Notes under the pieces: model-generated
Told to the model about the DNA's origin: nothing
Database searches by the model: none
The model's input: only the letters and a program-made list of their open reading frames with translations
Source of the DNA: Amphiscolops sp. MND2022
Taxonomy: Eukaryota
Length of the DNA: 64,000 nt
Reading direction: 5' to 3'
NCBI GenBank assembly: GCA_964187785.1
Contig: OZ076415.1
Span: forward strand, 1,736,001-1,800,000
Position numbers and translations under genes: made by a program
Shown: positions 1,117-49,185 of the stretch, piece after piece
Numbering within the stretch: the first letter of the stretch is position 1
How the letters are laid out: each line of letters opens with the position of its first letter

Positions 1117-1124
1117 ATTTGAAC

Positions 1125-20600: not shown

Positions 20601-23186
20601 TTCTAATTGGAATCACTTTTTGTCATTATTTTTCGTTCCTTTTCGATTCAAAAAAATGTCCTTTTGTTTCGAAAATGCTGTCCAGAAATTTTCTGATTCC
20701 AACCTTGCTATGTGGGTTTAAAGCTTTCCGTTCAAATCTGTGTCAAAACTTCTCCATTTTCATGTTTTCCAAAAGTTCAACCATGACAAAGTAAATCCCT
20801 TGACTAAGGATATATCAATTATCTTATTGGCCGGAAACAACAGCGGAATGATTTCGACATTTTGGTATATGAGCTCGAATACTCAAATAGGCTTGTTACT
20901 AACGCACCCCGCTGGGATTTGCGGAAGGGGTAAAATAAAGAAAATGATCTGAGTGTTAATTCATTCGAATTTAGGTCAAGTTTAGTGGTTTCAAAACAAA
21001 AAACTAATAAATAGTTTGCAGCTGATATCATTTTTGGTATATACCGAAAACAGCTCTGAGCTAAAAACCTTTATTTATGTTCTTGGCTTTATTAACCAGT
21101 AAACTAGTTTATGAATGTGCCAGTTAACTCCATGCAAATTTGGTTTTATTTATTTCCCTAAGTCGCCCGAGGCTCTGTCGCAAGTACTTTCGATTTTAGC
21201 ACCAGATTAACATGATTTCTCGCCTAGGTGTCTTAATGTTATTTTATAGAACATGAAATACAATCATTACACATGTTAAAGGAGACAAAATATTGTCGAT
21301 AATCCCGCCGAGGTTTCTAAATTTATTGAACAAGCAAAATCGAACTACTTTGCGGCGAATGAGAAAATTCACGATATCCAAGTATCCTTGGTTTTACACC
21401 AACAGTTTTAATCATTTTAGTCCACTAATTTCACAAAAAAGATAGGCAAATATTATGGACCGATTTTTTATTTAACCCCCGCAGGGGGCAAATGAGAAAC
21501 AGGGTTCAAATAACATTATGTCGACATAGTTTGCGATGGAATTTCGGTCCGATGAAATAATTCTTGTCGACATAGTCCTATTTTTCACATTAATTCGCAT
21601 TCAAAAAAGAAAAAATGCAATAAAATAGGGGCTTGCTTATACAATTGTAGGTTGTTCCGGTGTGAATTTTTGCTTTTTTGTAAGTAAAATATAAAAAAAT
21701 CCGAATATTTTTTGGCTGCAAGTTTCGAAACAACTCTAGAGAAATCCTCTCAGTATTACTAGCCATGTACATTTTTTTCATTCGCTCAAGAAATTTTTTC
21801 AAGCATTAAAATTGTTTTCGTGTTAAAGGGGGATAAGAAACATGGTCTCTTTATGACATTATATCGGAAGCGTTTTCACTGAACGCTGCCGGAGTTGTAA
21901 GATTTCTCCATTTCAGTTTAATTCCTTCAAAATATGAGTCATTTTCGTTTGATCAGCGATCATGGCTTTTCAATTGTTCCATTTGAAGCTTGGAAAAATT
22001 TCAAAATGTGAAGCTTCAAATGAGAAAGCCAACAATACAACGAAGCAATATACGATCTATTCAAATATAGAGCTTCCTTTCATGTTCAAAGATAAAAGAC
22101 TGAAGAATCTCTCAGACTTTAGATGTCAAAAAGCTACGAATATTTACAATTTCATGTGAATTAGATTTAAATTTGGGTTTTATAACTAGTTTCATTGTAA
22201 TTTAGGCAATTGGACTGTTTATAAAATGAAGTTTCCGGCTTTTACCTGGAATATTGTAAATTTTCAAATTTTTCTCCGCTGCTTTTTCCTGCTATTTTTT
22301 GGACCCGTATACCTTAATTTAAATTTATTTCAGATAATTTAATGTAGAATGTCTTAAAAGTTGTATGAAACTGTCCCGAAGCCTGTGTTGCGTTGCAACC
22401 GGGCAAATACTAGGAGCTCTAAAAAAAACGGAACGCACGAAATATTCACTCTTGAAAATTGTAATAATTGTAAACAAGACACTGAAAATCTTTCACTTTC
22501 TCTGTCAATCATCCTTTTATTACGTAATCAAATCTTCACCCTTGCTGAAACTCCTTGCTCTTTCTGAATTTCTTTTATTGTTGTCAACAATATTTTTTAT
22601 GGTTTCCTAAAACTCTTACGCAACTTTCATGCGAAAATATTTCCTTCTTACAATCGACTTTTATGAAGCTCCGGAAAAATTTCACCAGAGCTTTGGCGGA
22701 AATAATTAGCCTTGCTGGTTTCATAAAAAAGCAGCCTGTACTGACAACCCATGGTAACCCACCACTGGCCATCGGTGGCAATTTTTGGATAATCAGTCAC
22801 TATTTCCACCGGTGGTCACCGAATTGTGAATTATGGAAAATTATTGAAAATTATAATTTCATTATGGAATCCGAAGGTATTTAAATTTCCAAAAGCTTAC
22901 TTCTGCACTCAAGAAGTTCTGCGGCAATTCAGACTATTTTGGCACGTCGCGATGTAGGCAATGCTGCGGAACAAATATAGCTAAGGCAAAAAAAAACAAA
23001 TTAGAAAAACTGATAGCGCAGAGGTAAATGCTGGAGTGTCGACAAAATTAATACAGGTTCGCGTCACAATTTTTGCAATATTTTGTATACAACACGAAAT
23101 TTTTCCTCATCGGTGGCAACCGGTGGTCCACCCCTGGCCATCACAAAAAAACGGTTACCCTGGGTTGTCAGCACGGAAGTTCTTAT

Positions 23187-23903
23187 TGTAACGTCTGCCA
23201 CCGGCATGACCAAAATTTCGATGAAAAATTCGAAATGTGCGATGTCAAAATAGAAGAAAAAAGATGGCCGACCTGACAGGTACAAAAAGTGTGAAAGAAA
23301 AAAGAAAACACGCGGAGAGCGAGCAAAAAAAGAGAACACGTGCCGGAGAGACAGCAGAAAAAGATGAAAGAGCAAGAAGATCGAGGAATGTCAGAATGGC
23401 GATTATCGGGAAGTTGTGTCATCTCTTACGAAATTCAACAATTTCAGATGAAGATTGCCAGAGGGATATTCCGAATTATGGCTTGAAACTGTAAAGTAAT
23501 TGGGGTTTGTCCCCGTTTTTCCTTATTATCTTCATAATTCCCTTCGATATTTGAAAGATGTTTGACCTTCAAGGTCATTTTATATCTTATTTCCCAAATA
23601 TTATGTTTTCCAGCTAAATCACTGTTTTGACCTCGGAAGCATGTAGGAACTCGCAGGAGTACATTAGAAACCTTAGGAATGTTTTTACAGGCTTGTGGGG
23701 CGTGTCCGGACTTTGAGAGTGCCGGCGCGTCGCTTCGGAGCTCTAACTAGAGAAGCCTCCTTAGACGTTAGAAAAGTCCCCCTTGGAGACCATTTTGGGA
23801 TCAAAAACTAGTGTCTAGGTATGTAGTAAGACAACGGTCTCCTGTTTAAGCATCCTAGGCATTGTCCCTCTTCCTAGATGTGCGTCGCTAGCCGGTCGTT
23901 ACA
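23187..23903 (+). repeat. 5' LTR of element 3 (717 bp)
   Basis: Direct repeat of 41381-42096. Confidence 0.96.
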
Positions 23904-23919
23904 TCTGGAATAGTTTTTA

Positions 23920-23937
23920 TGGCGACCACAGAGGGAT
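23920..23937 (+). promoter_or_regulatory. Primer-binding site (tRNA-Arg-like), 16 nt downstream of the LTR
   Basis: TGGCGACCACAGAGGGAT is the complement of ATCCCTCTGTGGTCG-CCA, resembling tRNA-Arg(TCG) 3' ends; TGGCGACC is the known start of tRNA-Arg PBSs of 412/mdg1-type elements. Confidence 0.75.
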
Positions 23938-26791
23938 ATTTTTCATATTGCGTACAGGTAGGAGCAACTTCTGCTTTCCGGCCCCGAAGGGTCCAGATCT
24001 AGGAAAACGTTTTGGGAGGGTCCTAGATTATTTATAGCATTTTTCTGGCCCTCTGGGCTTTGTGCTAGTGTTATTCCTGCGTTTTCCCCGTGTTTCTGAG
24101 GTCTACTTAGAGAAATTAACCGTTCTTAACAGTGTACCCCCTTTTTCCTCACTAAAACCTAATAAAAAAGCTATTCCGGCCTATCCGGAACGTTTTTTAA
24201 AGGGTTTTCTAGCTTATTTTCAGCTAATTTGCAATGTATGGGGACAGAGAGGACGAGCGCCGAAGGTTCCCACCAGCTGTGATGACGTGGTGATGTCCTA
24301 CACAACCACTCCTCCCACGCCCCTGTGATTGCAGTACATCACGTCAGACGGGTGAAATCGTCTTTTTTCTTAATTTAACGGCCCAAAAAGAGTATTCCCA
24401 GGCCTATCACCATTATAACTAACTGAGAAAAATACCCATAGGGTATTCCGATCAGTTGTTAAAAAATTTGAGCTCAAAAACCTCGAAAATAACGTTATTT
24501 ATAGCTCAATTACCGAAATTTTCAATTTTGAAAATAAATATTTTATCAAACAGAGTAAGGCCAGTGGGAATACTAAAAAAACGTTCCAACAGACCCTCTG
24601 GGTCAGGAACAAAAAATTTTGCAGGGCCATTTTTCCAAAAATAGCGAAAAATTCAGCAATATCTGTTAAAAAATCGTCAAATTTGGCCATTTTGACCCAA
24701 CTTGACGAGGGCTAAGCCTTGGACACTAGCTCCCAAGCTTCTGAATCAGCCCAAAAATCTTTTTCCCCAACTTGGTAGCACGAAACACTACTACCAAGTT
24801 GTTTTTTAAGGCTCCCCAATAGAAATTGAAACTTTAATAACTTGTTTCTTTTGATATACATAGATCTGAGCAGAGGACCCCATAGACCTGAGCGATATAA
24901 CACCAAAAATAGTAATTGAACGAACCCCAACCCCATAAAATAAGTTGTCACACTCTCCCACAGTACTATTGGAACAATCCCAAACGCCCAAGAACCGATA
25001 AATAAAAATTTCTTGGTGAAAACACGTTATTTCAGTATTGTTCCGAGAGTGTAAAAAGTGCAACTTGAAAAATTTTTGACAGACCCTATTTGGGACCTAC
25101 CAGGTTTCGCTTGCTTATTTTCTGTTAGTATATACCCTAACGTTACAAACGCAGAAAACCGCGAGTGATTCCAACCAGTGGTTGTCGAGAAATAGCCGAA
25201 AACGCGTTATTTTTGCGACATTTTGGGAACCATATAGTAGTGCTTCCAGCACAAGTCGAAATCTCTCCTAGTAGGAGCAGCCTCAAACGGATTGCACCAG
25301 CGTGTAGACCATAAAAAGTTACGTTAGTGGTGTAATTTTCGTAGCGCTAGCATTACTAGTGATTGAGAAATCTTAGCCGCAGTTTTGCTCAAAAATCGTG
25401 TGAAAATGTCGAAAAATTTGAATTTTGGTTGAGCATAGTGCAATACCTCGCAGGTATCCCAACACTAAAATTCTTGCATTTTCGTGCGCACGGCACCAGA
25501 TCACGACGATTTGTGCAATTTGAGCAGCCGGCTACAAGCCAAAGCTGAGAAATTGACATTTTTGTGAATTTTGACCCGAAAAAATGGTACCTCTAGTACA
25601 TCAAGGTTTTGTCACTTCATATTGCTAGAAATTGATCAAGGCACCTCGCCGCTCTGTTTTTCTGTTACATGGGCACAAGTTAAGCTCACATGCAAGATTT
25701 CAGGTAGCTAGGAAGCCTAGAAGACGAGTTTGACCACTTTTTGCGAATTTCGTGATATAGTCAACTTTTCAATGAACATTGCTAAGTGACCGTAACACCC
25801 ACAGGGTCAATTTCTGTACAATCGGCGTTCAATTTCCCATGATTCAGCTGACGTAATATATGGTGTGAAATATTCAAGTCGCTACGAGCTCTGGAAGTGA
25901 TTTTCACCCTTCTCAGACGTGCCGATTGACGACAAATTTGCTAATTTGGTGAAAATTGAATAGAGAACAGCCCCCTTCCAGTCCCCAACAACCAATGTAA
26001 GGTCTTGAAAATAACTCTTCAATACAAGGAGCACTTCCCACGCTCCCAATAGAGCCGCATCGACTGCAATAGCAGTACTCCCAAAACTCACGGCCTCCAA
26101 AGAACTCACTCTGCTGACAAAAAAAAAATTTGGACACCCCAATACCGAATTTTCTAAAAAAGTAAAACAGTATCCCCATTAGCTCAACAGCTTTAATTCA
26201 AATCGCCTTCCTAACTAAACCCTTTCTTTCGTACCAATCCCCGAATCCTTTTCCAATCCTCCATTCCACTGTACCCGAATCAGAAAATTGAGAAAACTTA
26301 GTGAGTGACAAGTTCGTCCAACCGAAAGAGCGCACTGCGCTTAAAGCATATTGACCACTACCATTCATCCAAATAATCAGCCACCCACAATATTGATTAA
26401 AGCTCAATAGGCAATTCCATTGCCTATTCCAAAGTGAATTAGTAAATAAAACGTAAATAATCAAAAAAAAATAATTTTTAGTTCCCCTCCACTCAGTGGA
26501 CAGTCGAAACGAAATTTTCAGTTAAATGTTAGTATTTAGAATTAAACTAGCCCTCTTACCAAAGCTAGTCCTAACCTTTTTGTTAACCTCAATTCTGTAG
26601 TCGCTCCCTGCCTATAGCGACCACATACGTACAAACAAAAAAATTTTTTTTAGAAAAATCAACAACCAACCTAAAATCATCTCCCATCCTTTCTTAGGAG
26701 GGAAGGGTGAGACAAAGAAATTAAAAATTCCTTATTCAAGAATTCCCCTTTTCGTTTACAACCAGAACCCATACGCTAAAAATTGACCAGA

Positions 26792-29700
26792 ATGAACAGG
26801 AACCCTCCCAAAAGTTTCCATGCCACCAATCCATTTGGCAATATAGCGAGAGATGCAACCAGTTGGGAGACTCTTACTAACAGTTCTCCTGAACCTACCA
26901 TTACAGACATGTTTTTAGAATTCATGTCTGACTACATCCCCAGCACAGATCAAAACACGGAGATGACAACCGCAGCAGAACAGCTCGGTTCGTCGCAAGC
27001 TTCCCCTGACAGTACTCATCCAGTGGATAGTACAGGAAATACTACGCGAAGTAACGCGTGGCCCCCTCTAGAAGTCACCGACTATAGCCTAGAGGAATGG
27101 CCCAACTCAAATAAAAAAACCCAAAATGAAATAAGTGCTGCCGAAGAAACGGCATCACAAAATAGTAATCACTCAACTCCTGTGGCGGCCCCCCGCACTC
27201 CTTTGATTAAAAAGAACCCGCTGGGTTCCCACGCACCAGATATTAACACAAATCGAAACGATCAGAACCCCTTTCTAAGCGGATACGCACAAAAAACAGG
27301 GCCATCTACGGCACCTGCCCAGCCAAACGACGATCAACCAACACAAACGGAAAATAACCCATTGAGGTATGTCTTTAGAACACCTCCATCTAGAAACTTA
27401 GATCTTGCCCCAAGGCGAATGGACAGATTAGATCATACCCCTAATTCCAGAACCAGTATGGAAACGGCCCCTGACTCGACCGTTACGAAAGTCACGAAAG
27501 AGTCCCAAGCAGTAAGGGAAGAATTTCGAAACAGCCTGGCTCAGCTATCACAAGTACATTCACGACTGTCACGAGAAAATACTGAGCATGTAATAAGGGC
27601 TGATGTCATTATGAGAGACATGGATGAAATGAGGAAAGGCCTGCTAGAAATACAGGCCGAAGGGCGTCAAAGCCAAGGAAGACTGGAAGCATCCATGGCT
27701 TCTCTCAACGACTTAATAAAGCAGAGGGAAAGCATAGCAGACACGCGCATGGCCGAAATGTCCGCTGTGATGAAAGAGAGAGACCGTCAAGCAGACGAAC
27801 GGATGAAAATGATGTCAGATCTCATGCAGCGTAGAGAAACCGACGCAAACACCAGAATGATAGACTTGATGACCACGATGAAGGATTTGACGCTTGGAGT
27901 AAGAGCGATGGCAGCCCAAACTGCAACAACTCAAACAAAAGTAATGCCAGTGGCGTCGATGATCTCAAATTCAGACGGATACCCCTCCACTAGCGCAGCA
28001 CCAAACCCAACGCAAACTGCTTACCGCAAGGTGGCCCAGTCCAACGCCGAGCAAGCAAAGCCCTTGAAGCTGATACCACCCGCAACCTACAAAAGGGACC
28101 TGCCACGAACTAACAAAATGGCAAGAGTGATAACAGAGTCCCGCGACGTGGGCACGGACCCATTAACCAGCATCTCATTTGATCCGTTTGCTCGCGGTGC
28201 ATCAACAACGGGAGATTATTACTCACCCGCAAGCGGTATGACCACAAGGGAATCAAATTACCATACTGCTAGGACGAACGTCAGTGAAAATTCCCCCAAA
28301 CAAGCATACCTAGACTTGATCCCGCGGCCAGTAGCCACAAGTACACAGCGAAAATCCACAACGAAAAGAAACCTAGAAGAAAATAATGACGAAATCGAAC
28401 AGCCTTCAGAATCGCCAAAAGCAACGCCAGACACCCCAAGAACTAGCCAACGACAAGCATTGGCGGAGGCGATCTCAACTGCTATGTCCAAAGGCTTGGA
28501 ACCGTTACTCGCGGCGAAAGAATCGAAGAATAAACCCACAAAGTATCGAGGGACCAAAGACGGAAACGCCGACGGGTGGATGATGCTGATGAAGCGCCAC
28601 TTGGAGAAGGCACACACCAGAGCTACTCCTCTCGACAAGGCCTGGACCATAATAGAGTACCTGGAACATGAGGCCCGTGACTACATCACTAACAAATCCG
28701 AAGCGGAAAGAGACACCGATGAAAAAGTCTTTGCATTGCTGGCACGACGATTCGGAACTGGATCAAGCAAGATCCATATACAGCAGCAGTTCCGTACACG
28801 CAACCAAAGCAATGAAGAAGACTACATGCAATATCTCGATGCTCTCGAAGGCCTGCGCAGTCAAGGCTACCCCAACGAAGAGGTTACCGTTCGCAGATAT
28901 GAGATAATGCAAAAATTCATCGAGGGTGTACGCAACTTTGAACTCAAAAGGAACCTCGCCTTAATGTATGCGCAAGAACAGTATGTTGAAGCACCTCCAA
29001 CGGTAGAAGCGCTTCGCTTCACAGTCCAACAATACCTGCGCATGCGTGGTTCTAACCGCTCAGACAACTACCAAATGCCCCAGCCTCAACACCCTCAGCC
29101 TCAACAACCGAATCAACAACCGAAATTGCCTCAGGCAATTCCACCGCCGATACCGCAACCCCAACAAATTCCACCTCCACAACAACTAGCACCCTACCGA
29201 CCACAACCCCAACGAGCATGCTTCAATTGTGGGGACCCATCACACTTCGTAATCGATTGCCCACTCAAAGACCGTGCACGGAAACCGGTACAGCAACAAG
29301 TAAATTCTTGTCACACCAACCCCTCCGGTGGATGGACTTGTCCATCACAACCCCACGGAGTGAACAACGAAGTGTACCCAGCATCCCTACCAATCCAAGG
29401 AACTGTAGCTTTCTGTGTCAATTGTGGATGTGCCGAACATTCCGCATCGGAATGCATATCCCCAGAATATCCCAGACAAGAAGAACAAATAAGGGCAGCA
29501 TGGTATGCACCGCACACCAATCAATTCGAAGGCGCATCACAGGATGATCAAGTCAGAGTAATCTCGGTAGCAGAGGCCGGAGGCCCTTCCCGTCCTGTCG
29601 TCATTACTTGCGGCGAAAAACAAGTGCTTACCACATTGGAAGCACCCGCCCCCGACTGCACCGAGACACTCATCTCCATACACTTACTTCTCTCGGCTGA

Positions 29701-30883
29701 ACAAAAAACACGTCCTGAATTGACGTTAGCGCAATTAAAAGAGGAGCTATGCAGAAATTCCAAGTATACTATCGCAGCTCGACCGCTACCGCATTTCACC
29801 CGAGAGGACGAGACAAAATTGGCCCCAATACAGAAAGTAAAAACAATTTCCCCAGTACCGGTAGCCATTAATGTAGACGGGGTCGACATGAAATTTGACG
29901 CCATCGTAGTGGTAGAAGGTTACTTCCCTCAGGGATTATACTTAGGTCGCCAGGAGTTGAGATGTTATAACATTGGAGTACAAGACACTCAAGGGGAAGC
30001 TAGCATCGACGAACGAGCTTCTTTGGTAGTTGCCTTTGGCAGCAACCTCCAAGAGTCCATTCCCTTGTATGGTATGATTGACACGGGTTCTGGTGTTTCT
30101 ATCCTCTCCCTTGCAGCGTACCAAAAGATTGCTTCCGCCCATTCGTTGAGCCTCATGCCGTACGACATCCACTTATACGCAGCAAACGGCAAAACAATAA
30201 CGACGGTCGGCATGGCAGAAAACGTAAATTTCCAATTGGGCGGCCACTCATTGAAGACTAACTTCATCGTCATTGCTGATCACTTAGGGGCTGAAGACTT
30301 CCTGTTAGGACGCAACTTCTTACGCACCTATAATGTCCTCGTGGACTTGACCGCCATGAGGGTCACCATCAGGGACCCAAAAACTCCACGCCATTTCAAA
30401 CCAATCCATGAGGTTAGTGACCATGAACCTTCCTTAGTAGTGTCCACCGACAAAGTTGTACTAGGACCTTTCGAACGCAAGTTAGTTAGAGCACAAGTCA
30501 TCACTCAAGATCCCAATGAATATCGTTTCCGTAATGTAATGATACGCCCCAGCGGGGTGTACAACCGAAGTTCCTTTGTTTCAGAAAACACCCTAACTTC
30601 GGTGGGAGACGATGGCACGATATACATGGCCGTAAGAAACAAAACCGCCATTGAAAACTTACAAATTTATAGTCGAACTCTCCTAGGCAAGGCAGAGCCT
30701 ACCGTTTTTAAGTTTAGACCGATTCCGGTCGACCAAACCGATAGAACCTCTATGCCTCTGATAGAACAAGTTAATAATATTAATATTGTTGATCTTGACG
30801 ATACAAGCAGTGAATTCAGTTCTTTCGCACAAAACTTTTTATCATCTACTGAGTTGTCCGAAGAGGATATGTCAGAAAATTAA
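26792..30883 (+). CDS. Gag-protease part of element 3 polyprotein (first ATG 26792)
   Basis: Coiled-coil region; capsid-like segment (PTKYRGTKDGNADGW...RRFG...FRTRNQ); two CCHC knuckles (29219-29260, 29414-29455); aspartic protease IDTGS (D at 30080) and LLGRNFL; dUTPase-like beta segment before RT. The stop at 30881 is in frame with RT. Confidence 0.92.
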   Translation: MNRNPPKSFHATNPFGNIARDATSWETLTNSSPEPTITDMFLEFMSDYIPSTDQNTEMTTAAEQLGSSQASPDSTHPVDSTGNTTRSNAWPPLEVTDYSLEEWPNSNKKTQNEISAAEETASQNSNHSTPVAAPRTPLIKKNPLGSHAPDINTNRNDQNPFLSGYAQKTGPSTAPAQPNDDQPTQTENNPLRYVFRTPPSRNLDLAPRRMDRLDHTPNSRTSMETAPDSTVTKVTKESQAVREEFRNSLAQLSQVHSRLSRENTEHVIRADVIMRDMDEMRKGLLEIQAEGRQSQGRLEASMASLNDLIKQRESIADTRMAEMSAVMKERDRQADERMKMMSDLMQRRETDANTRMIDLMTTMKDLTLGVRAMAAQTATTQTKVMPVASMISNSDGYPSTSAAPNPTQTAYRKVAQSNAEQAKPLKLIPPATYKRDLPRTNKMARVITESRDVGTDPLTSISFDPFARGASTTGDYYSPASGMTTRESNYHTARTNVSENSPKQAYLDLIPRPVATSTQRKSTTKRNLEENNDEIEQPSESPKATPDTPRTSQRQALAEAISTAMSKGLEPLLAAKESKNKPTKYRGTKDGNADGWMMLMKRHLEKAHTRATPLDKAWTIIEYLEHEARDYITNKSEAERDTDEKVFALLARRFGTGSSKIHIQQQFRTRNQSNEEDYMQYLDALEGLRSQGYPNEEVTVRRYEIMQKFIEGVRNFELKRNLALMYAQEQYVEAPPTVEALRFTVQQYLRMRGSNRSDNYQMPQPQHPQPQQPNQQPKLPQAIPPPIPQPQQIPPPQQLAPYRPQPQRACFNCGDPSHFVIDCPLKDRARKPVQQQVNSCHTNPSGGWTCPSQPHGVNNEVYPASLPIQGTVAFCVNCGCAEHSASECISPEYPRQEEQIRAAWYAPHTNQFEGASQDDQVRVISVAEAGGPSRPVVITCGEKQVLTTLEAPAPDCTETLISIHLLLSAEQKTRPELTLAQLKEELCRNSKYTIAARPLPHFTREDETKLAPIQKVKTISPVPVAINVDGVDMKFDAIVVVEGYFPQGLYLGRQELRCYNIGVQDTQGEASIDERASLVVAFGSNLQESIPLYGMIDTGSGVSILSLAAYQKIASAHSLSLMPYDIHLYAANGKTITTVGMAENVNFQLGGHSLKTNFIVIADHLGAEDFLLGRNFLRTYNVLVDLTAMRVTIRDPKTPRHFKPIHEVSDHEPSLVVSTDKVVLGPFERKLVRAQVITQDPNEYRFRNVMIRPSGVYNRSSFVSENTLTSVGDDGTIYMAVRNKTAIENLQIYSRTLLGKAEPTVFKFRPIPVDQTDRTSMPLIEQVNNINIVDLDDTSSEFSSFAQNFLSSTELSEEDMSEN

Positions 30884-33800
30884 AAACGCGCGCAAACAGA
30901 CCCGAACCTATTGAAACCAATACCAGGCCCAGATCTGTCCTCCGTCCTTTCTTTTTGGGGGGAGGGAGCGAGAGATCAATTAGCAGAAGTTTTGAACGAG
31001 TACGACGACCTCTTTATGAAACATAAGGCCGACATAGGAAAGTGTACGATAGCAAAACATCGTATCGAATTGGAATCAGAAGCTATCCCCCACAGGGAGG
31101 GCGCAAGGCGAATGTCACCAGACAAAGCCGCCAAAGCCAACCAAGAAGTGAGGAACCTCTTAGCATTAGGCTTGATCCAACCTTCCTACTCGCCTTGGGC
31201 TAGTGGAATAGTAATGGTGAAGAAGAAGACAGGTGAACTTCGCTTCTGTTGCGACTTTAGACCGCTAAGTGACGTAACAGTAAAAGACGCCTTCCCCCTT
31301 CCCAGAATAGACGAAAGTCTGTCTAGGATAGGTAACGCAAAAATCTTCACAAGCATCGACATAGCATGGGCCTTTTGGCAAATACCACTGAAGAAACGCG
31401 ACAGAAGGAAAACAGCATTTGCCTGTGAATTGGGTTTGTTTGAATGGCGACGTATGCCCTTCGGGCTATGCAATGCATCCGCCACCTTCAAACGATCCAT
31501 CACAAGAGCACTTCAAAAAATCCAACAAAGACACGGAAGTGTCGTCATGGCCTACATCGACGACATAGTGATTGCAACTGAAACAATTGAAGACCACATA
31601 ATGAGGATTAAAGAAGTATTTGAATGTCTCAGGGAGGCAGGCTTTAAGATGCGAGCGGAAAAATGCGACTTCATGCGCACAGAAACCAAATATCTGGGAC
31701 GGATAGTATCAGCCGATGGAATCAAGCCCGACCCAGAAGCAGTGACCAAAATCCAAGAGTGGTTGCCACCAAGAAACAAAGAAGAACTCCAAAGCTTCTT
31801 AGGGTTTGCTAACTACTATCGCGATTTTGTCCCATTCCACGCCTCCAAAGTGCAACCCATGCAGGAATTGCTAAGGAAGAATCAACACTTCGGCTGGGAG
31901 GAAAGACATCAAGAAGCCTTCGACTCAGTGAAACAAGCCTTGTCCAATGCCACCACCTTGGCTGCACCAAACGAACAAGGACGGTTCGTGCTAGATACAG
32001 ACGCCAGCACGGTAGCTATTGCGGGTATTCTACATCAAGAACAAGAAAACAACGGCAAAACTATCCTGAGACCAATAGTTTACGGTAGTAAATCACTGAC
32101 CAAAACCCAACTGAACTACGGCGCCCCCAAACTGGAGATGTATGCAGTATTTTACTTTGTAGAGAAATTCCACTCATACCTAGCAGGTCGAGAGTTTACG
32201 CTTCGCGTAGACAACCAAGCTCTTTCATGGCTCAAAACCTACTCCATGGACCAAGCCATGATTGGCCGTTGGATCGCACGTCTAGACCAATATCATTTCA
32301 AAACAATTCACAGACCGCGTACGCAACACCGAAATGTCGATGGACTAAGCAAACGCACCAACGTTTGCATTAATCGCGAACAAATCCTTGAAAAGCTACC
32401 AGAGGTAAGCGAAGGATTTAACTTCATGTCACAAAAAGACTATGATGAACTCCCCACCGTCCCATACATCGACAAACGTGGTCACCTAATCCCAGACCAC
32501 CCTGAACTCCCCCAGAAGCTAAAGCTCGACTACCTCTGCTATACATCCTTCAGAAGAAGCGAAAGAACAATCAGCCTAACGAACCAACAGGAGATATCCC
32601 CTGGTATCCCGAAATTCAATGGGAAACCACACCGACTATGGAAGAGGATGAGCGACCCAATCGAATCTTGAGCATAACCACAAGAGTGCCTCCGGCACGA
32701 ATAGACACAACAAAGCCTGACCCGACCCTGGGGACTCTGCCTCTCGAATGTCAAAAACAAAGCTGACATTCTGAGAACCATTGAAACCGAATTGCACGAA
32801 CACCATCTAACCAAATATGGCCTCCGAGACCTACACATGGCGCAGAACAGAGACGTACACCTATTGGCACTAAAGAAACTCATGAGAAATGAGCCATTAG
32901 AAGAACCTATGTTCCCAGATGAAGTACAAGACTTCGCCAAAAGATACTACCATCAAAAGAAAGACCTGCTATTCTTGAACCCTGATGACATACTCTGTGT
33001 CAATTACGTTCCCCAGCAACGTGCCCTGCACGTACGCCCATGCATGATAATCATGCCGCAACTTTTCCAACACGAAATCCTGTACAGAGCACACGATGAA
33101 TCGGGACATCAAGGCGTAGGAAAAGTGCTGGCCAGAATACAAGAACGGCACACTTGGCCGGGAATCAAGAGGGACGTAGTAAATCACATCAAGCAATGCT
33201 TGACTTGCCAACAAGCAAAACACCCAGCGGGAAATCCTTGCTACCCCCTGCAGAGCATTAATAGTAGCAATTTCAACGACCTAGTTCAGTTCGATCATTT
33301 GAAACTCTGCAAGACCGACTCGGGCAACACCGGTCTTTTGGTAATAGTAGGTCATTTTACCAAATTTGCAGAAGCTGTCCCCTGCGCTCACGACGAATAT
33401 GACGCACAAACCACCGCAAAAATAATCCTGAACAAATGGTTTGCCAGGCATGGCACTCCTGCAAGGATGCAATCGGATAATGCAACTAACTTCACCGCTG
33501 AAATCGCCCAGGAATTAATGAAAGCCTCTCAAGTCACCAAAGTTACGTCTACCCCAGCACATCCCAGAGGAAATGGACTCGTGGAGCGCCAGAATCGAAC
33601 TTTGCTCACTCTCCTCCGAGTCTACACCTCACGCAGAATGCAAGACTGGGACGAACACATTGATGGAGTTCTGGGCGCATACAACTCCAGCAGACATGCC
33701 ACTACAGGGTTCTCACCCTACATGCTCCATCATGGCGCAGAGAAATCGATACCACTCTCGTTTATATACCCAGAGTTCGCAGCGCGAGGCTTTGATTCCA

Positions 33801-36401
33801 AAGAAGAGTTCGTTGAACACCTGTTGGCCAGACAACAAGAAATCCACGAATTAGTTCGAAGAAATACGCATCAAGCTCAACTTCGACAAAAACTAAAATT
33901 TGATCGTCACCTCAAAGCAAAAGCGCACGCCGTAGGCGACGCTGTCTGGGTATTTTGTCACATAATCCCCAAGGGCGGCACTCGCAAGCTTATACGCGCT
34001 TGGCGCGGACCCCACAAGGTCACCAACGTACTACAAGATGGACGTCTCTACGTGCTCGACACAGGTCAAAAAGTTCACTACGACAGACTAAAGAAACATG
34101 TACCAGCCCCCTGGGACTGGACCACTTACCAACCATTCGGACTAGATCAAAATGTAGCTATCATTGCTGATCCATACGTGGAAGACACTAACGAAGAAAT
34201 CACCTCCGACATCTCTAGAGACTCTCCTTTCTTCCAGAACAGCTCCCAGAGGCGTCGTTCGAAATGGAACCCACGAGACCGGTCCCCCCCGTACCATCCA
34301 AACACGAACACAAACTGCCCTAGGACAAGGGGTCCCACGCAGGAGATTCAGCCAATTCGACTACCCATCCGAATCAGACTCCGAAGCCGAAGCGGCAGAA
34401 CCTTCCCCCATGACCCCTCCCTCCCAAGTAGTATTCCCCGAAGTCGATGATCTAGAACCATTATTTTCCGACCAAGATGAAATACTGCCACCAACGCTCA
34501 TCGAAAGTTTAATACCATTACCTTCAGGAACTTCAGCTCCATTACTCTCCAACCCCTCGCTCACAGACACCTTGAGCAACTTTCCTTTGTTTAACCAACA
34601 AACAACGCACCCCAACGACCCGACTGATCCCATTCAGGCCACTGAGCCACTGGAAAACAATGACGGACCTGACCACCAAATCGCGAATCCAAATCCACCG
34701 CCTACAACCACCACAAGGGGAGGTCGACCTCGAGGTAGACCCCCTGCTCGCCGACACCAACTACCCACATCATCAAGCAAAACCACCACGTCTTCCCGGA
34801 AACCAACCACGCGGCACAGGAGAGGCCCAAGAACCAGGTTTTCTTCTAGAACCGCGCCCAGAACGCTTGACAGAGCCATGACTCTTCCTCATATTCCAGA
34901 GAGTTCATCCCCTGCTCAATCACCCCAACGTGATGATAATTCTAGACAAGCGCCACGCTACCAACTCCGAACCAACAGAGCACCGAAATATAAGTGCGGA
35001 ACCTGTGGTTCTCGTAACTGTAGTTGCGTCCAGCTAGTCACAACAGAAACCCCAAGACAGCGACTGGCCCGGGGAGCGGCGATTCCGGACTACGAGTTCC
35101 TCTTAGCACAAACAGCGAACCACCCACAACACAAAATCCTCAATGTACGAACAAAATTACATAATTCCAATATCACACCAACCGTCCGACATATCATTTT
35201 AACAATCGAAAAAACTTTTACCACTACCGAATCTGAATCCATACCACCCTTGGAATCCACCCTGAAGGAAATGCACCGATTCTCCCCCTCTGATTGCCCA
35301 ACCTATCGTTTCAAAGAGTGGACTTCTCATGAAAAAGGTGGACTTGAATTCACGCTAGCAGCAATCATTCCCCCTCTACCCCCCTCGTTTTCATTTGGTG
35401 AATTAGATGATACCTGCAGTAACCCCCTAATGATCCGCTGCATAACCGCAAACCAACTATGGCAGAAATATCACATCACTTCCCCACCAGGTGATATATA
35501 TCAACCATCCACTGGATGGTGGCTTCTAGTCACTTCCCTTGACGACTCATCATTAGTCTCACCAACTACATTATTGTTATGCCTAGAAAACCTACGCACC
35601 CTCGTAGAGTCGAACGACACCTTATGTTTTCATCTAGCTGACATTTACCGCGACACATTCTTGAGCCAACATTGGCTACAACTAATAGCCATTGTTTTCT
35701 GCAGACAAACGAAAATATGCATTCTCGACCGCTTAACGTACACGCTCGAAATACCTATTTCTCCCTTAGAAGCACTCTCCGTAATGCACAGATGGTCGTG
35801 CGTACATATGGGCAACCGCCCCCTACGTCGTACAATATGGAACGATCGCAAATCAATTTTCGCACACTTGATGTTGAACCCCCTGGAGAATCACGCAGAA
35901 GAAACTGGAAAATGGCTCATCTCACAACCAAAGATTCGCCCAAGCCACGTATCATGGATAACTTACTCCGACACGGACATCCTGCAAGCCTCTGGCACAT
36001 TAGTATTGTGCTGTCCTGCAGACCTCCAATCCCAATCAGCAACTATTCGATATATTATTCGCGAATATGGACAAGAAACTATTTTCCGTCTAAAACCTTC
36101 GGTTGGCACAGCCACTTGCTTACAGTACTCCCACACGGCACCCTGGTACAATCAAATCTTCCTCCTATACACCAGAGCCTCCACCAAATACCCACTACTA
36201 CATGAGACCCTACACGCATGCCTCAACCATCTTCGGCATCAACTCCACCAACACCAAATTTCCCGAGTCCACATACCCATCTATGACCCCGAACGATCGA
36301 TCAATCTCATTCCAACTTGGTACGCCACGCTCCGGGATCACTTCTTCGGTTCAAATCTTGAGATAGTACTCCACGATAGAGTCTACGTTTCTATTGCATA
36401 A
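30884..36401 (+). pseudogene. pol of element 3: RT-RNase H-integrase plus long C-terminal extension with tandem macrodomain-like folds; frameshifted
   Basis: RT (RFCCDFRPL, MPFGLCNA, YIDD 31553-31564); RNase H (LDTDAS, LRVDNQAL); integrase HDESGH..CLTC, QFDHL, QSDNA, GNGLVER, WRGPH; frameshifts at ~32513, ~32761, ~34225-34290; extension ORF 34164-36401. Confidence 0.92.
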
Positions 36402-36774
36402 ATTTCTTCCTTTGACATCCCCACAGATTGAGTTTTCATGATTTAAAGGGCCAGAGGCCCGCCCTCCTTTTTTTTGTTTTCTAAAATCCACCCCCATTTT
36501 TCTCGTTAACTTCCTTAATACGTACAAAATAGTCCGTAAAAGGTCTTCTTTTTTTAAACGACTGCACTCTATCTAACTACTAAACTTTTTAACACTCACT
36601 CTGTCATTTTAAGTTTTAACTTTTAGTTTTCCTTTCTTACCACTTCTAATATACCCTGTTCATGTGCCACTTGATTTTCAGTTTTGTCCTGTTGCTTCGC
36701 CCTTGCGCAGCCTCCCTATATCACACCATCACCCTCTTTCATCCATATCCACTTATTCCCTATCTGTGCTATCA

Positions 36775-39700
36775 ATGGATCCTTCATCGCGTAATCGCAT
36801 GCCTGCTCCCAATAGCCAACAGAATCCCCAATCTCGTATTCCTTCTTCTAACACTCTCCAATCAATGGGCGAGGTTAATGGCCGAGTCGACCAACTAGCC
36901 TTAGTCCAGCAAGCTTTACAAGATGGGGCCACCCCCACCATGATCACTGGCTTTGCCATGATTGTAGCGCAGATGCAAGCGCAAGCTACGCACCCAGAGG
37001 TCTTATTGACCATTACAAGTAGCATTGGACCGCTTGAGCGTTCCGCTACCTTCCGCGATGGTGTTTGCCATGGTTACGATTTAACTCATAACCTGATCGA
37101 CCATCGCTCCCATATGCTCTACGGAGAACCTGACGGGCCTCCTATGGACCAAGAACGATCGTTCAGAATTTCTCCCCCAACAATACAGCCAATCTTCCAC
37201 CCAACACAGCCTGCCCCATCTCAAACTATGATACAGCTTCCACCCCCCGAGACTACAACCTTCAACTGCACTTTGCCTCAAATGCTACCTCCAATCCTCA
37301 CGCCACCTATGCCTCTGGCATCTGTGGGTATCAACCCTCCCACTCTCTCTACTCCTGCCTTTATGCTTCCTTCCGCCTTTCAGGGGGGAGGGGTGCAAGG
37401 AGTGCAAGCAAATCCCATCGAATGCAATCAAGTGACACAAGAAGAAGCCAACAACACTCGCCCAACGAGAAAAGTCACATTTCAAAAAGAAGAGCAAAAG
37501 AAAGAAAGAAAGGATAGAAATGCTCCAATGGATCTCCGCGATAAGTTGAATGCAACGAAGAGAGCTAGAGAGCAAGACGGGCAAACCAACTCAAACAGAG
37601 GAACTCCAGCCCAATCCCCTAGCCAACCAGAAGCCAGGAGACAAAAAGTCACGAGAGAGTTACTAACTGCGGCAGAAATGAAACAGTTGGATATTACAGC
37701 GAGAGACGCACTGCGTCTTCAACGCGAAATACCAAATATGCCTGACGAAGAAAATCCCCCCAAGACAGAAGTTTGCGAGCGCTAACAGCAGAGGGGACCA
37801 AACCACTCAGCGAACTATAGAGAAGGCCAACATTGGAGTAGTTTACAACCGACCAGTTAAGCCACCAATATTCGCCAATGATGGAGGAGTCCCACCATGG
37901 TTCGAGCGTCTCAGGAGAGAATTGCAGAACAGCAACTCCACGTACTTACAACCGCTCCAAGCAACCAACGATCGACTCGCTCGCCAGAGACCCGGCAGAT
38001 TCGGAGAGAACCACCTACAGTCAAAAAACTACGCGAGGAACCCCATCACCCTACTACCAATGGGAAAAGATTTGCTACAGAAAATTAGGATTGCTCTCTT
38101 CGTTGACTCAACCATCAAGTCATCGTATAATGGCAATAACACCTTGATGGACGTTAGACTAATGAATATGCCTTGCACAACGCTTAATGAAATGGCAGAG
38201 GTAACAGACAAAATATTCACGCCAGCGGGGACAGAAACGATACCTCTTCCACCAGTCTTGGTGTATTCGAATGTGATTGATCACCTCGCCCTGCGAGGAT
38301 CATTGCGACATTTCGATACACAAAGCAATCGATTTACCGAAGGCTTCGTCACCGACGAAGTCACGGCCTACATAGAAACAATGTCCTACTTTGTTACTAC
38401 ATTGAAAAACAAAAAACCGAACACCGCAACAGTCTTCGTCTCACCCCCCGGGTACATTTATATCCCAAGAGCACTGCAACAATTCTTATATTTAGTGCTT
38501 GAAGCAGCTTATGCAAGAGACCTCCACTTCTACATTGTTGCTCCAAATTTAAGAGTTAGCGTAACCACGTGGCGCCCCTGCGAGGCGTCGTATCCAGCCT
38601 TTTTGGCAGAGGTGTCCAAAGCCGTCCAGGCATTCACAGGATATCGAGGCAATTCACAATTGATTGTCGACGAAGCAACCGCGTACGACTACGGAATGCA
38701 GATGTCTATCCGATCCCTAGACGAAAACGGTGTACGCAAAGTGTTCGACCCGAACGAGAACGAGAGAAAACACCTAATCGATAACCTCTGGTTTGAAAGA
38801 AGGGATGAGTCCACTCTCGACGAAAAAACACATGAACCAAAATTCCACAAAGAGCTCCTAACTCTTTTTAAAGAAACTGAAAAAGTTAAAACAGAACGGA
38901 CCAACACCACCGTATTTCCCATGGCGGCTATATCTACTGATGCTAAACTTGATATGGCGTCTCTCACTTTGACGCTCTTGACAGTAATGACAAGAGGCTT
39001 GGCAAGACAAAATGAAGTAGAACCAAGCCATACCTATCAAACTTGGCACAAAGCCCTACATGAAACCTTAAATCAAGTCGCCCTGCGGCTAGAAATCCCA
39101 TTTCCTGTGTTTCTTTATAACATTTCCCCCTTTTGGCTCCCGAGTTTTGTTCAAGCCGAATTTAATCTTGATGATCAACAGACGCGGTTATACCAGGAGG
39201 CAATGCAAAAAGCCACCATTAGTGAAATTCTAGCTTACTTAATGGCGGTCGGAATGCACACAGTGTATAAAGGACCCTCTGGGATTCTGCAAAAACTAAT
39301 CTTCGACAAGGGACATCTACCACTCTTCAGCTACTTGGTATTCTCCCAAAGCCAAAAGAACTGGTTACAAGCAATCTTGAACGCCTTGGACCCAGCGGGT
39401 CCTCTACGATTAAAAAGACAACTGGAACTAAACATCGAAGCTATTCTAGCATGGATTTACTCAACATGGGTGAATGTCGCGGGTATCATGCATCCTCTCG
39501 ATGAGAACCCAGCCATTAACAGAGAACCAAACCAGCTCCCTGGCTTCCTGTTTCCTTCACAAATGGCAACCCTTATGCTGGTAGAAACAGAGGACGTGAT
39601 GCCCCTAATTGCCCCAATAGTCTGGCCAATCTTTGGCGCGGTCATGGCTCTAAGGTACCCCACTCAGGTCTTGCGCATGGCAGTGAATACCCCCACCCTT

Positions 39701-40816
39701 TCCATACTGCATTTCGTGATGGCAGATGAGACCCTAGCGGAACCGACTTACCGCAAAGTGGTAGCCAATTTCAGCTCGATGCGACCGCCCATGGCTTATA
39801 CAATTATCAAGGACAAAAAACAGGTTGAGCACAATTTTACTTCTATCATAAAAGCACGTGCACGCTGCGCCCTCCCGATGCCAATGGAATTTCACCCAAT
39901 TGCATGGCTACATATCCCCCTAAATCCAGCAACAGGAGCAGCACATTCCCTTACGGATTGAAACTCAGAGATAATCCTGAGGATTCTAGCCACTGCAAGC
40001 CAAAGATTGGGCGGAAGGCGACGAGGTGAAGAACCCAGCGGGTTGAGATATCCCTATGTGTGTGATGCCTCAAGGATGTACTGCGACCGAACCAACCCTC
40101 GCGCGCACCCATCGGATATACTACAGGCAACAACGTGCTGGTCGAAACCAGACTTAGTAGATTTTGCAGTCCACCAGACTTCTCAGCACATAAAAGCCAA
40201 GACGCCCTCAGTAGCAAAAGAGCCAAACAGAAAGACTCTACCAATCAATACAGAAGTCCCAAATAATCCGCGCGCTGCGCTAGAGATATTCTTGAACCTA
40301 CACAGTAGACAAAAGGAAAAAGGGGATTCTGTTGGAGAAGAGTATGCACGCGGAATCCAGACCTTCAAAAGTTTGTTCATTCAACATGGCTACCCAGAAC
40401 TTGCCAACAAACTACCTGAATTCCCACAGGGAAACATCATCGAACAAAGCAGTGCAACGAATACAGCTGCCCCTGGCAGCTCACAGCAAGAGACACCCAG
40501 TGAATTGCCCGCGGAAAGAATGGAAACTCGAATGGAAGAAGACCAAAAGAATCAATCCATCGTCATTGAGACTCCTGATGAACCTATGACAGATGATAAC
40601 TTCACTCTATCCGACGGTGCAACCCCTACTCAAGACGAACCCGAGACAGGAATATCTCAAATGGATGCTGCTGATATCGAATCTGAGTTGAACAACCTAC
40701 TCACCATCGACGATTCGATACAATATCCTCCCTTGGTGGCGGAATCTTCAATAAACCAAGATTCAGCAATGACATCCTCCGTTTCGGATTCACAACAAAG
40801 CCAAAACGATGAGTAA
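36775..40816 (+). pseudogene. Accessory ORF of element 3 (reconstructed ~1,346 aa) with SGNH/GDSL-like domain
   Basis: ORF 36664-37785 (ATG 36775) joins ORF 37922-39961 (frame open from 37667) by removing one C from CCCCCC 37756-37761; ORF 40007-40816 is in the same frame after a single TGA at 39959; SGNH-like blocks at 38090-38636. Confidence 0.7.
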
Positions 40817-41371
40817 AAGAATAACAATCGACGCTGAGCCGTTCAATCTGAAAACGAAAACTTGCCTTTGAATAGACAGGACTTTACCCCAATGGTCTTA
40901 GACCATTGCATTTTTGTTGGTGCTAAGACACTGAATTGCAAAGTAATACCTATTATCTACTTAAATTTTAGTTCATCTGCATCATATGGGTGGGCCCTGA
41001 GCCAGTGCCCACCCTCTCTAGTTCGGTAATTAACCATTGTTACCAAGACTTGAATTTTGTTACCTGGAGAAGTGCTAGAGCACCTCCTAGAAAAAAGATT
41101 TTAATCTGAGTTTGCGAAATTGCTTACAAATTTTGAGATTGTCAATCATAAATTTTAGTTTTGTCCAGTGAATATTTTTAGTTCTCGCTAAGACCAATTG
41201 ATACTAATATAAGGAAATAACAAAAGAAAAATTTGGAGATTGAAAGAAAGCAAGTAAGGAAAAAACAAAACCTTCCTAGGATGTTCAAAAAAAAGAGAAA
41301 AAATCTCAGCATTGCTATCACCCTCTGGGTATTAGCATCCTTTCGTTTGCCGAGGACGACAAACTACGGCC

Positions 41372-41380
41372 CGGGGAGGA
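41372..41380 (+). promoter_or_regulatory. Polypurine tract of element 3
   Basis: (C)GGGGAGGA immediately before TGTAAC of the 3' LTR. Confidence 0.75.
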
Positions 41381-42096
41381 TGTAACGTCTGCCACCGGCA
41401 TGACCAAAATTTCGATGAAAAATTCGAAATGTGCGATGTCAAAATAGAAGAAAAAAGATGGCCGACCTGACAGGTACAAAAAGTGTGAAAAAAAAAGAAA
41501 ACACGCGGAGAGCGAGCAAAAAAAGAGAACACGTGCCGGAGAGACAGCACAAAAAGATGAAAGAGCAAGAAGATCGAGGAATGTCAGAATGGCGATTATC
41601 GGAAAGTTGTGTCATCTCTTACGAAATTCAACAATTTCAGATGAAGATTGCCAGAGGGATATTCCGAATTATGGCTTGAAACTGTAAAGTAATTGGGGTT
41701 TGTCCCCGTTTTTCCTTATTATCTTCATAATTCCCTTCGATATTTGAAAGATGTTTGACCTTCTAGGTCATTTTATATCTTATTTCCCAAATATTATGTT
41801 TTCCAGCTAAATCACTGTTTTGACCTCGGAAGCATGTAGGAACTCGCAGGAGTACATTAGAAACCTTAGGAATGTTTTTACAGGCTTGTGGGGCGTGTCC
41901 GGACTTTGAGAGTGCCGGCGCGTCGCTTCGGAGCTCTAACTAGAGAAGCCTCCTTAGACGTTAGAAAAGTCCCCCTTGGAGACCATTTTGGGATCAAAAA
42001 CTAGTGTCTAGGTATGTAGTAAGACAACGGTCTCCTGTTTAAGCATCCTAGGCATTGTCCCTCTTCCTAGATGTGCGTCGCTAGCCGGTCGTTACA
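41381..42096 (+). repeat. 3' LTR of element 3 (716 bp)
   Basis: About 99.4% identical to the 5' LTR. Confidence 0.96.
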
Positions 42097-43298
42097 TATT
42101 TTATCAGCAAAGAGCTTGTTATGAGTTTTATCGCAATTTTAATGCAAAATAACTTCAGTCGCGTAATAAACTGCATATTATTGTCATGTTTAGACCCTAT
42201 TTGAGACGCGGTGATCACATCATCTGAGCAGTTGACGAAACAAAGTGTAAATACAAAGTGTGATCGTGTCGGTAATGAAATGGGATTTAATTTTAAATTG
42301 TGCAACAAATTCAACCGTGACCTTATACTAAATTTTCTACATTTTAGTTTTAAAATTTTCCTGCATGCAGGCGTGCAGAATGTAAAACTTACCAGCAGTC
42401 TCAACTATGGCAACCAAGAGTGATCCGATTCTTCAGACAACAATCAGACGTCTCTCTTTCAGTCATTTCGTTGACACTTTTGACGCGTGAAAGTTCATTT
42501 TCTTCGAAAAAATAGTTGTCAAAGTGAATGATTTACAGTCTGAATTGAAATGTTCCGAATTGTTTTAGAACATTTGTTGACAAATTTTGAGAACTCAAAA
42601 GTTTTCATGTGTTCCGTTTTTTATGGTTCACTTAGTTTGAAATAGTCAAATGAAAGATTCAAAAAGGCAAAATTCACAGATGAAACGATTATATTCTAGA
42701 ACAGTAGATATATTTTTTTCTGTCACTGAAGCCAAAAAGGTTTTTTCACGTTGCCACTGTGAATTTTCAGCGGTGCAACCCAAATTGACGGAACAAAGTC
42801 TTCTTAGCAATGTTTTCAATTTCAGTATTTTTTCCAGCAACGAAATCTGGGGAAACTGAAATTTGATGACTTTGTGACCAAGTTGAAACTACAATTGTTT
42901 GAAAAAATACATGCAAAAGCTTCTCATCTGAACAATTATTTCGAGTTTCAACCAAATGAAGAAGACATAGAATCGTTTGGCGACAGTTGTAAAAAATCTT
43001 TATTTCGAATTAAATCGAAATTTTGGGCATTTGAGTTTGAAGAATGTATTTCAATTGATGTAATTAGATGGTAATTAAGCGAAACGAGCTTCAATCTTGA
43101 CTGATAATGAACATGGTCAAGAGCTGATGAAAAATTCGAGAGGAGATATTATGTCATGATAGCCACAAAAATCAATTTGACGGAAGAAGACCAAAACACG
43201 CACAAAAGTTAACAGAAAACTGCAAAAAAGTCACAAGTGATACTTTCAAAAAAAAAGAGGACACCTTTGATCAAAAAACTGTGTCAACGGTACAAAAC

Positions 43299-43490
43299 TG
43301 AAGTAACGTGGAGAAACAAGAGGATAAATACAGTGAATTTAAAAGCTAGAGCGTAAGTATCAAAACAGATCAGTATCGTATATATTTTCAGTGTGTCCAT
43401 ATACGCATTAACGTTACATGACATCTAAAAGTGGCAGGTAGTTCAATGTTCACTTTAATTGGATTGTTCATTTTGCCATTTCATGCCACA
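43299..43490 (-). repeat. 3' LTR of element 2 (192 bp)
   Basis: Direct repeat of 48993-49185; shares block TTAA..TGAACATT.AA.TACCTGCC with element 1 LTRs. Confidence 0.93.
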
Positions 43491-43621
43491 TTCCCTTCTT
43501 CCGGGATCTCCTAAGGGAGCTATTTTTGTTGTGGGTTGTCCTTCTTGATTCGTGGAAATGGGGTGAATGGGAATCGACCTGGAGTGGTGAAAGTGTAGGC
43601 GTCTCCTAAACGTAAAAGGTT

Positions 43622-48957: not shown

Positions 48958-48992
48958 TGTTTTTCTTTCTGTTCAAGATGCTGACTGCGCCA

Positions 48993-49185
48993 TGAAGTAA
49001 CGTGGAGAAACAAGAGTATAAATACAGTGAATTTAAAAGCTAGAGCGTAAGTATCAAAACAGATCAGTATCGTATCTATTTTCAGTGTGTCCATATACGC
49101 ATTAACGTTACATGACATCATGAAAGTGGCAGGTAGTTCAATGTTCACTTTAATTGGATTGTTCATTTTGCCATTTCATGCCACA
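48993..49185 (-). repeat. 5' LTR of element 2 (193 bp)
   Basis: TG...CA termini, PBS adjacent. Confidence 0.93.

Follow-up and report, generated by a model that had tools for sequence, protein, structure and literature searches.

A 19-kb Ty3/gypsy lineage in Amphiscolops with a macrodomain-like pair at the end of Pol and a likely SGNH pseudo-hydrolase in a second reading frame

The window studied here is a stretch of 64,000 nucleotides from Amphiscolops sp. MND2022 (assembly GCA_964187785.1, contig OZ076415.1, positions 1,736,001 to 1,800,000 of the forward strand). It contains, at 23187-42096, an 18.9-kb Ty3/gypsy long terminal repeat (LTR) retrotransposon that inserted recently and is now a broken copy. 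The element is real, lineage-wide and under selection, and it represents a lineage of 19-kb elements in which at least five families have one plan in common: Gag-Pol ends in two macrodomain-like units and is followed by a separate open reading frame (ORF2) of about 1,400 codons. We think it probable, with moderate confidence, that the macrodomain-like pair, akin to ADP-ribose hydrolases, and a likely SGNH domain of ORF2, lipase-like in type, are enzymatically dead binding modules that serve intracellular replication, and that they are not an envelope.

A lineage of 19-kb elements

Searching the genome with the ORF2 core returned 62 matches to the family of the window copy (family A) at 80-98% identity, excluding the window itself, with 59 candidates scored of 4,210. 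Six of these loci were fetched, four of them colinear along the whole element, one with a 5-kb internal duplication, and one older and lacking much of pol; ORF2 is open for 1,433-1,436 codons from stop to stop in three of the six (L013, L016, L019). In the duplicated copy (L023, L024) the repeat is a tandem one and spans a gag-pol region equivalent to window positions 27231-32304. Four sister families, B to E, were found via ORF2 and Pol-tail homologs (37, 95, 96, and 98 matches, respectively), and two loci were fetched for each. Across families A-E the elements are 18.8-19.2 kb long, with full LTRs of 717-738 bp and LTR pair identities of 93.8-99.9% (12 pairs compared). As a lower bound, the five families contribute more than 380 scored loci, each about 19 kb long, to the 1.07-Gb genome.

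An earlier note, made by a model from the window's letters, had described a young element with LTRs differing at 4 of 717 positions, a 2.9-kb leader, a second ORF of about 1,350 codons, and no recognisable env. Alignment of both LTRs bears out the first figure (three substitutions and one indel), as does the distance from LTR end to Gag ATG the second; the second ORF is kept in sister copies and families, and searches found no env-like match. "Young," however, fits the insertion more than the family. Uninterrupted Gag-Pol occurs in 0 of 87 scored family A matches (at least 76% identity; longest frame 2,175 codons, and 2,276 in L024), and family A is therefore decaying in its coding state although the window insertion is recent. 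The same note had reconstructed Gag-Pol as one frame of about 3,200 codons. Its span is right and single frames do exist in sister families (3,296 codons in C, 3,192 in D, at least 3,114 in E), yet none is intact in family A, for which a single frame is presumed from those sisters. In family C about 60 of 96 scored copies (a hand count) have open frames of at least 3,200 codons, and in a sixth family, at 67-68% Pol-tail identity, such long Gag-Pol frames are found in 8 of 12 rows.

ORF2 follows pol in all five families, with an overall identity to family A of 51% in B, 25% in C, 24% in D, and 25% in E (60%, 30%, 29%, and 30% for the core). The ratio of nonsynonymous to synonymous substitution rates (dN/dS), taken as region averages with our own Nei-Gojobori script, is, for ORF2, 0.04-0.16 in the D vs. 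E comparison and 0.05-0.19 inside family A, the two comparisons computed for this frame, and 0.02-0.03 (D vs. E) and 0.10 (A vs. B) for the Pol tail; between families dS is near saturation, which makes those ratios rough and is a point against leaning on them. Taken together, the values indicate that both ORF2 and the Pol tail are kept by purifying selection. The extra sequence could have been suspected of being a nested insertion, or else passenger DNA evolving neutrally, as the window copy is broken in both frames and an older sister locus (L026, L027) has a large pol deletion with an unrelated set of ORFs beside it. However, 6/6 family A loci and 5/5 families, some only 24-25% identical, have this sequence in the same place; its dN/dS is far below 1, and a distant metagenome contig has it too. 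Colinearity, presence in all families, and low dN/dS therefore refute a nested insertion, so that the earlier note's treatment of the extra ORFs as part of the element stands, and we give either origin hardly any credence.

Membership in Ty3/gypsy is clear from several features. Two LTRs (TG...CA), a primer-binding site, and a polypurine tract are present, and Pfam domains in the window element and a sister family run in the Ty3/gypsy order of CCHC zinc knuckle, protease, reverse transcriptase (RT), RNase H, and integrase. The best match of RT-RNase H in PDB is Ty3 (E 1e-73), followed by a caulimovirus-type polyprotein (5e-47) and retroviral RTs (6e-33 or weaker). In an RT-RNase H tree of 31 rows, the 23 rows of the lineage form one clade with 100/100 support, separate from named proteins of fish, frog, and Chara that are 33-39% identical; the tool flagged long branches in this tree, and its named references are vertebrate and Chara proteins. 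Chromoviruses carry a chromodomain in the slot where this lineage has its macro-like pair, and Pfam-type searches found no chromodomain at the integrase C-terminus. Likewise, no Burro-type traits (length over 30 kb, BIR, BCL2, ankyrin, in-frame env) were detected in these elements.

The lineage also extends beyond this genome, with the same layout in other sequence sources. With a profile of the ORF2 core, 658 representatives were found up to an E of 0.001; most of the best 150 look like close-family fragments, and among these 150 P0317, P0327, P0251, and P0197, on short contigs, are only 23-32% identical. An RT search recovered a family at 57-59% identity, in clusters of 2,400-3,100 members, with an SGNH domain that nothing in this genome matches closely, and one of its Gag-Pols (P0475, 3,179 aa) ends in a single macro-like unit (98%). 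Between RNase H and integrase, three proteins of this sister family outside the genome (P0475, P0393, P0406) have ~500 aa of inserted sequence, compared with ~280 aa in families C-E. Metagenome contig L107 (RT 44%) encodes RT, RNase H, and integrase, followed by a macro unit (E 6e-19) and, after it, a region resembling ORF2 (E 4e-5), and L114 has ORF2-like matches as well. RT patterns reached 30 loci in metagenome contigs, of which 2/30 have an ORF2-like region, most loci being too short to reach ORF2. No relative was found with ORF2 and tail patterns in viral contigs or with tail patterns in metagenome contigs.

The macrodomain-like pair and ORF2

A 44-row profile of the Pol tail has TARG1/OARD1 as all of its top five PDB matches, at E about 0.05. 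When the profile is built from the terminal domain plus bridging relatives, the match to TARG1/OARD1 reaches E 5e-8 over residues 6-142 of 146 (top five of nine hits), and we take this as homology of the terminal domain to the TARG1-like macro fold, in line with the macrodomain-like cargo that the earlier note had proposed. The first tail unit matches the second by hhalign (93%, E 3.5e-7, score 48 vs. a shuffled maximum of 20), and families A-E thus carry a tandem pair. For the Pol tail, Pfam returned nothing relevant and ESM Atlas no match. In TARG1-like macrodomains the glycine-rich loops are the ligand loops, and a Lys and an Asp, which we take to be residues 84 and 125 of TARG1, are catalytic. 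Human TARG1/OARD1 (PDB 4j5r) is alike across nearly the whole domain; it differs in that both of its glycine-rich loops align with non-glycine residues in 5/5 families and that Arg and Ser occupy the catalytic positions in the window copy. The Pol-terminal module is thus presumably non-catalytic.

Could the cargo instead be a counter-defence? The macro pair would then bind ADP-ribose marks, strip them off, or act as a decoy for a host PARP pathway, and ORF2 would dampen silencing by small RNAs. Viral macrodomains do act on mono-ADP-ribosylated proteins (PMC7139919), the lineage has been very successful, as its many long-frame family C copies attest, and the distant relative P0459 has retained a glycine motif closer to the canonical one. 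The ligand-binding loops have nevertheless been replaced in every family, and ORF2 and the tail are under strong purifying selection, seen in region averages only, instead of the fast change of an arms race. We therefore regard counter-defence as unlikely.

ORF2 is about 1,350-1,450 aa long across families and consists of a conserved N-terminal domain of ~110 aa, a low-complexity linker, the SGNH-like domain, a conserved core of ~450 aa, and a variable tail. By eye, its motifs can be read as SGNH blocks: a strand followed by Asp-Ser; a second, Pro-containing strand; Asn-x-x-Asp-His; a fourth strand, with Pro-Pro-Gly; and, instead of the expected Asp-x-x-His-Pro, Arg-Pro. Read in this way, the position of the catalytic His is a near-invariant Arg, block I Asp-Ser and block III Asn are kept, and block II Gly is mostly lost. 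A bridge to intact SGNH domains is provided by P0393, a relative outside this genome (RT 58%) and an apparent pol-ORF2 fusion, which has an intact SGNH domain (PF13472, E 9e-7; GDS, GTND, DGIH) and, downstream, a degenerate one with AGINDH; its intact-SGNH family has no high-identity counterpart in this genome, where the best match is at 34%. In its homolog P0436 the degenerate region and the ORF2 profile match at 87% (E 4e-6); for P0393 itself the figure is 7%, or 84% with a trimmed profile. Compared directly with 10 intact retroelement SGNH domains (nine picked from 20 fetched loci plus P0393, their SGNH identity confirmed by a match to 4c1b), the ORF2 domain gave a score of 31, E 6e-4, and an hhalign probability of 28% over 131 columns, with blocks I-III in register and a score above 40/40 shuffles (maximum 15.5); against a single intact SGNH domain it gave no match. 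ORF2 thus likely contains an SGNH pseudo-hydrolase domain, and the SGNH-like cargo of the earlier note gains moderate support from the P0436 bridge and the direct comparison. The simplest history would be a duplication of SGNH followed by loss of the active copy in families A-E. No useful PDB match was obtained for the N-terminal domain. A match of ORF2 profiles to designer-PPR proteins was rejected as a sum of repeats, each domain having E above 30.

SGNH domains also occur elsewhere in the genome. Another gypsy family (L091, L092) has an intact SGNH domain right after integrase (GDS, GTND, DGIH; Pfam GDSL E 5e-13, OSK E 5e-9), which makes SGNH capture recurrent. At L169-L177, L179, and L180 lie several further SGNH families, each in multiple copies, whose frames of about 300 codons have G-S-S, DGTN, and D-x-IHF motifs.

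We consider it quite improbable that ORF2 encodes an envelope of non-canonical type, or a protein for movement from cell to cell, and that the element is infectious. Such a role would suit the env-like place after pol, the putative acceptor-like sites upstream of the ORF2 ATG in 5/5 families (picked by eye, with no chance control), and the single internal hydrophobic peak in each of the five ORF2s (19-residue mean 1.7-2.3), and membrane penetration has been proposed for rotifer GDSL ORF3s (PMC5408684, PMC6431247). However, neither a signal peptide nor an N-terminal hydrophobic stretch was detected in any of the five (N-terminal mean at most 0.4), the 8-19 cysteines align poorly between families, and no match to a fusion protein was found in Pfam or PDB. 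In env-bearing gypsy elements of errantivirus type, by comparison, env has a signal peptide, a transmembrane anchor, and homology to fusion proteins.

Priming, integration, and the proposed cycle

The primer site exactly matches the last 18 nt of genomic tRNA-Arg(TCG), a pattern with 255 matches and 0 in the control. It lies 16, 16, 16, 15, and 15 nt from the LTR in families A, B, C, D, and E, so that the unusual priming geometry pointed out in the earlier note holds in all five. In family B, as read after the 5' LTR of L054, the primer site differs at 4/18 positions, which suggests a switch of primer tRNA. Most of the listed primer-tRNA matches lie in a tandem array of tRNA-Arg at G000:C9:57.54-57.58 Mb (L057-L060), with a spacing of ~173 nt.

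Target-site duplications (TSDs) of LTR retrotransposons are usually 4-6 bp, and those of an annelid set are 3-5 bp, mostly 5 (PMC8220671). In this lineage the duplication is 3 bp in 31 of 39 resolved insertions and 4 bp in 2/39, with no perfect duplication in 6. Family A has 3 bp in 10/13, 4 bp in 2/13, and none in one; a first set from families B-E has 3 bp in 5 of 7 resolved loci and one mismatch in two (one more locus was unresolved); and families C and D together have 3 bp in 16 of 19 resolved loci (20 fetched) vs. 0.39 expected by chance, and 4-6 bp in 0/19. An ordinary gypsy element in the same window (897-6069) serves as an internal control and has a TSD of 5 bp. The unusual TSD reported in the earlier note is thus a lineage-wide trait, one that departs from the typical 4-6 bp without bearing on superfamily, which TSD length does not define. 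One insertion (L146/L147) lies where a 9-bp inverted repeat of the target forms its loop, with no such pattern seen across the insertions in general.

The element probably follows an otherwise ordinary Ty3/gypsy cycle inside the cell that is altered in three respects: in the cDNA ends and target stagger, in the integrase-linked macro pair, and in the accessory ORF2 protein. To judge from the genomic ends, tRNA-Arg would prime reverse transcription to give a cDNA end with 15-16 extra bases past the CA, to be trimmed, and the target cut made by integrase would be staggered by 3 bp. The position of the macro pair and its lost loops suggest a tether to chromatin or protein. ORF2 would be translated from a sub-genomic RNA that arises by splicing, and its pseudo-SGNH domain, by analogy with Oskar and ZfL2-1, may bind the ribonucleoprotein (RNP) or membranes and traffic the RNP.

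Several points weigh against this reading. The tether and trafficking roles draw on analogies only, and the macro and SGNH assignments on profiles. The direct SGNH match is a weak one that drops to 6% without the bridging rows, the intact-SGNH profile fails to detect ORF2 by hmmsearch, and ORF2 has no relevant Pfam or PDB match. ESM Atlas leads for its SGNH-like domain are all below 0.85, with a lead at 0.80 that is at chance level. A fold is assigned to only one third of the protein, and the conserved Asp-Ser of block I could possibly reflect altered catalytic activity instead of its loss. For the spliced RNA, a donor-like site near the primer site was seen in only one of the five families. 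The internal hydrophobic peak in all five ORF2s also counts against the reading.

Each type of cargo has a separate precedent on retroelements. The bdelloid rotifer element Vesta (Rodriguez et al. 2017, PMC5408684) is likewise gypsy-like, with an SGNH-type ORF downstream of pol that replaces env. However, rotifer LTR ORF3s keep their catalytic residues (PMC5408684), whereas the domain described here is degenerate, forms part of a 1,400-aa protein, and is accompanied by the Pol-terminal macro pair, with no dUTPase seen. Planarian Burro/GYPSM1 (Arkhipova and Yushenova 2019, PMC6431247) resembles the lineage in its very long single Gag-Pol frame, extra domains, and many copies, but is longer than 30 kb and has a 4,900-5,100-aa ORF1 with BIR, BCL2, ankyrin, dUTPase, and in-frame env (PMC6431247), none of them detected here; the word "macro" is absent from the main text of that review of giant elements. 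Macro-domain ORFs are carried by fish epsilon-like endogenous retroviruses (PMC4977317, citing Basta et al. 2009), yet those are retroviruses, and here a degenerate tandem macro is fused to the end of Pol in an element with a Ty3/gypsy RT. Retroelement and dead SGNH folds are known from the ZfL2-1 ORF1p esterase, there lipid-binding (PMC3905857), and from the Oskar OSK domain, there RNA-binding (PMC5785220); these belong to a non-LTR ORF1 and a host gene, and ORF2 is linked to them by homology only indirectly, through the intact retroelement SGNH set.

Our literature search, which did not extend to Repbase, GyDB, or most subscription papers, found no report of this combination of cargo or of a gypsy lineage with 3-bp TSDs, and Repbase may already hold such families. 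We suggest tentatively, and with less confidence than for the binding-module reading, that this could be an undescribed and widespread clade with altered integration chemistry (a 3-bp stagger and a 15-16-nt cDNA overhang), an integrase steered by pseudo-macrodomains, and a 1,400-aa accessory protein derived from a duplicated SGNH esterase after loss of the active one; standard LTR-finder settings cover neither such a length nor such a TSD, which would explain why the clade was overlooked. A published pipeline used a minimum TSD of 4 and an LTR distance of up to 15 kb (PMC8220671). Such settings would exclude 19-kb elements with 3-bp TSDs, which standard searches would likely miss and which may therefore be under-counted. 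A DDE integrase lineage with 3-bp duplications and priming 15-16 nt from the LTR would allow a direct test of how stagger is set and ends are processed. The lineage would also allow a shift of cargo from enzyme to likely binding module to be followed with intermediates at hand, a single vs. a double macro unit and an intact plus degenerate vs. a degenerate SGNH domain alone.

Feature coordinates and neighbouring sequence

Features of the window element are collected in Table 1. Lesions in its Gag-Pol are a stop at 30881-30883 and gaps near 32500, 32740, 34220, and 34280 (relative to 5/5 sisters); ORF2 has a frame-changing gap near 37760 and a stop at 39959-39961, and it lacks ~105 bp near 37484 that are present in 6/6 sisters. 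The leader has no ATG ORF of at least 60 aa on the + strand in family A, and the leaders of families A and B are 76% alike.

Table 1. Positions of the element's features in the window
Feature	Position	Strand	Remarks
Left target-site duplication	23184..23186		3 bp, TAT
5' LTR	23187..23903	+	717 bp, TGT...ACA
Spacer, LTR end to primer-binding site	23904..23919	+	16 nt
Primer-binding site	23920..23937	+	18/18 nt complementary to 3' end (incl. CCA) of genomic tRNA-Arg(TCG)
Leader	23938..26791	+	2.9 kb, up to Gag ATG at 26792
Gag-Pol	26792..36401	+	About 3,200 codons; lesions in this copy: 1 in-frame stop, 4 frame-changing gaps
CCHC zinc knuckle (Gag nucleocapsid)	29213..29263	+	PF00098, E 0.008; sister family E 5e-7
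Aspartic protease	30011..30376	+	DTG motif
Reverse transcriptase and RNase H	31217..32293	+	Best solved relative Ty3 RT
Integrase	33056..34120	+	H2C2 finger, DDE core; 3' limit approximate
First macrodomain-like unit of Pol tail	35370..35708	+	The more degenerate one; hhalign to second unit
Terminal TARG1/OARD1-like macrodomain	35904..36398	+	Glycine loops replaced
Putative splice-acceptor-like pyrimidine-AG site	36671..36681	+	Upstream of ORF2 ATG; by eye, no chance control
ORF2	36775..40816	+	About 1,347 codons in window copy; broken
Likely SGNH pseudo-hydrolase domain of ORF2	38084..38632	+	Profile comparison
Polypurine tract	41373..41380	+	Short; abuts 3' LTR
3' LTR	41381..42096	+	716 bp
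Right target-site duplication	42097..42099		3 bp, TAT

Other repeats share the window. The ordinary gypsy element at 897-6069 (+) is 5.2 kb long, with 207-bp LTRs that are 99% alike and with RNase H and integrase matches. A second gypsy-like element, at 43299-49119 (-), lies directly beside the 19-kb element, has protease, RNase H, and integrase, and is 71-82% alike to the first. LTR fragments akin to the 19-kb lineage, about 80% alike, are found at 58002-58282 and about 58960-59440, and degenerate 79-bp tandem repeats occupy 17-518.

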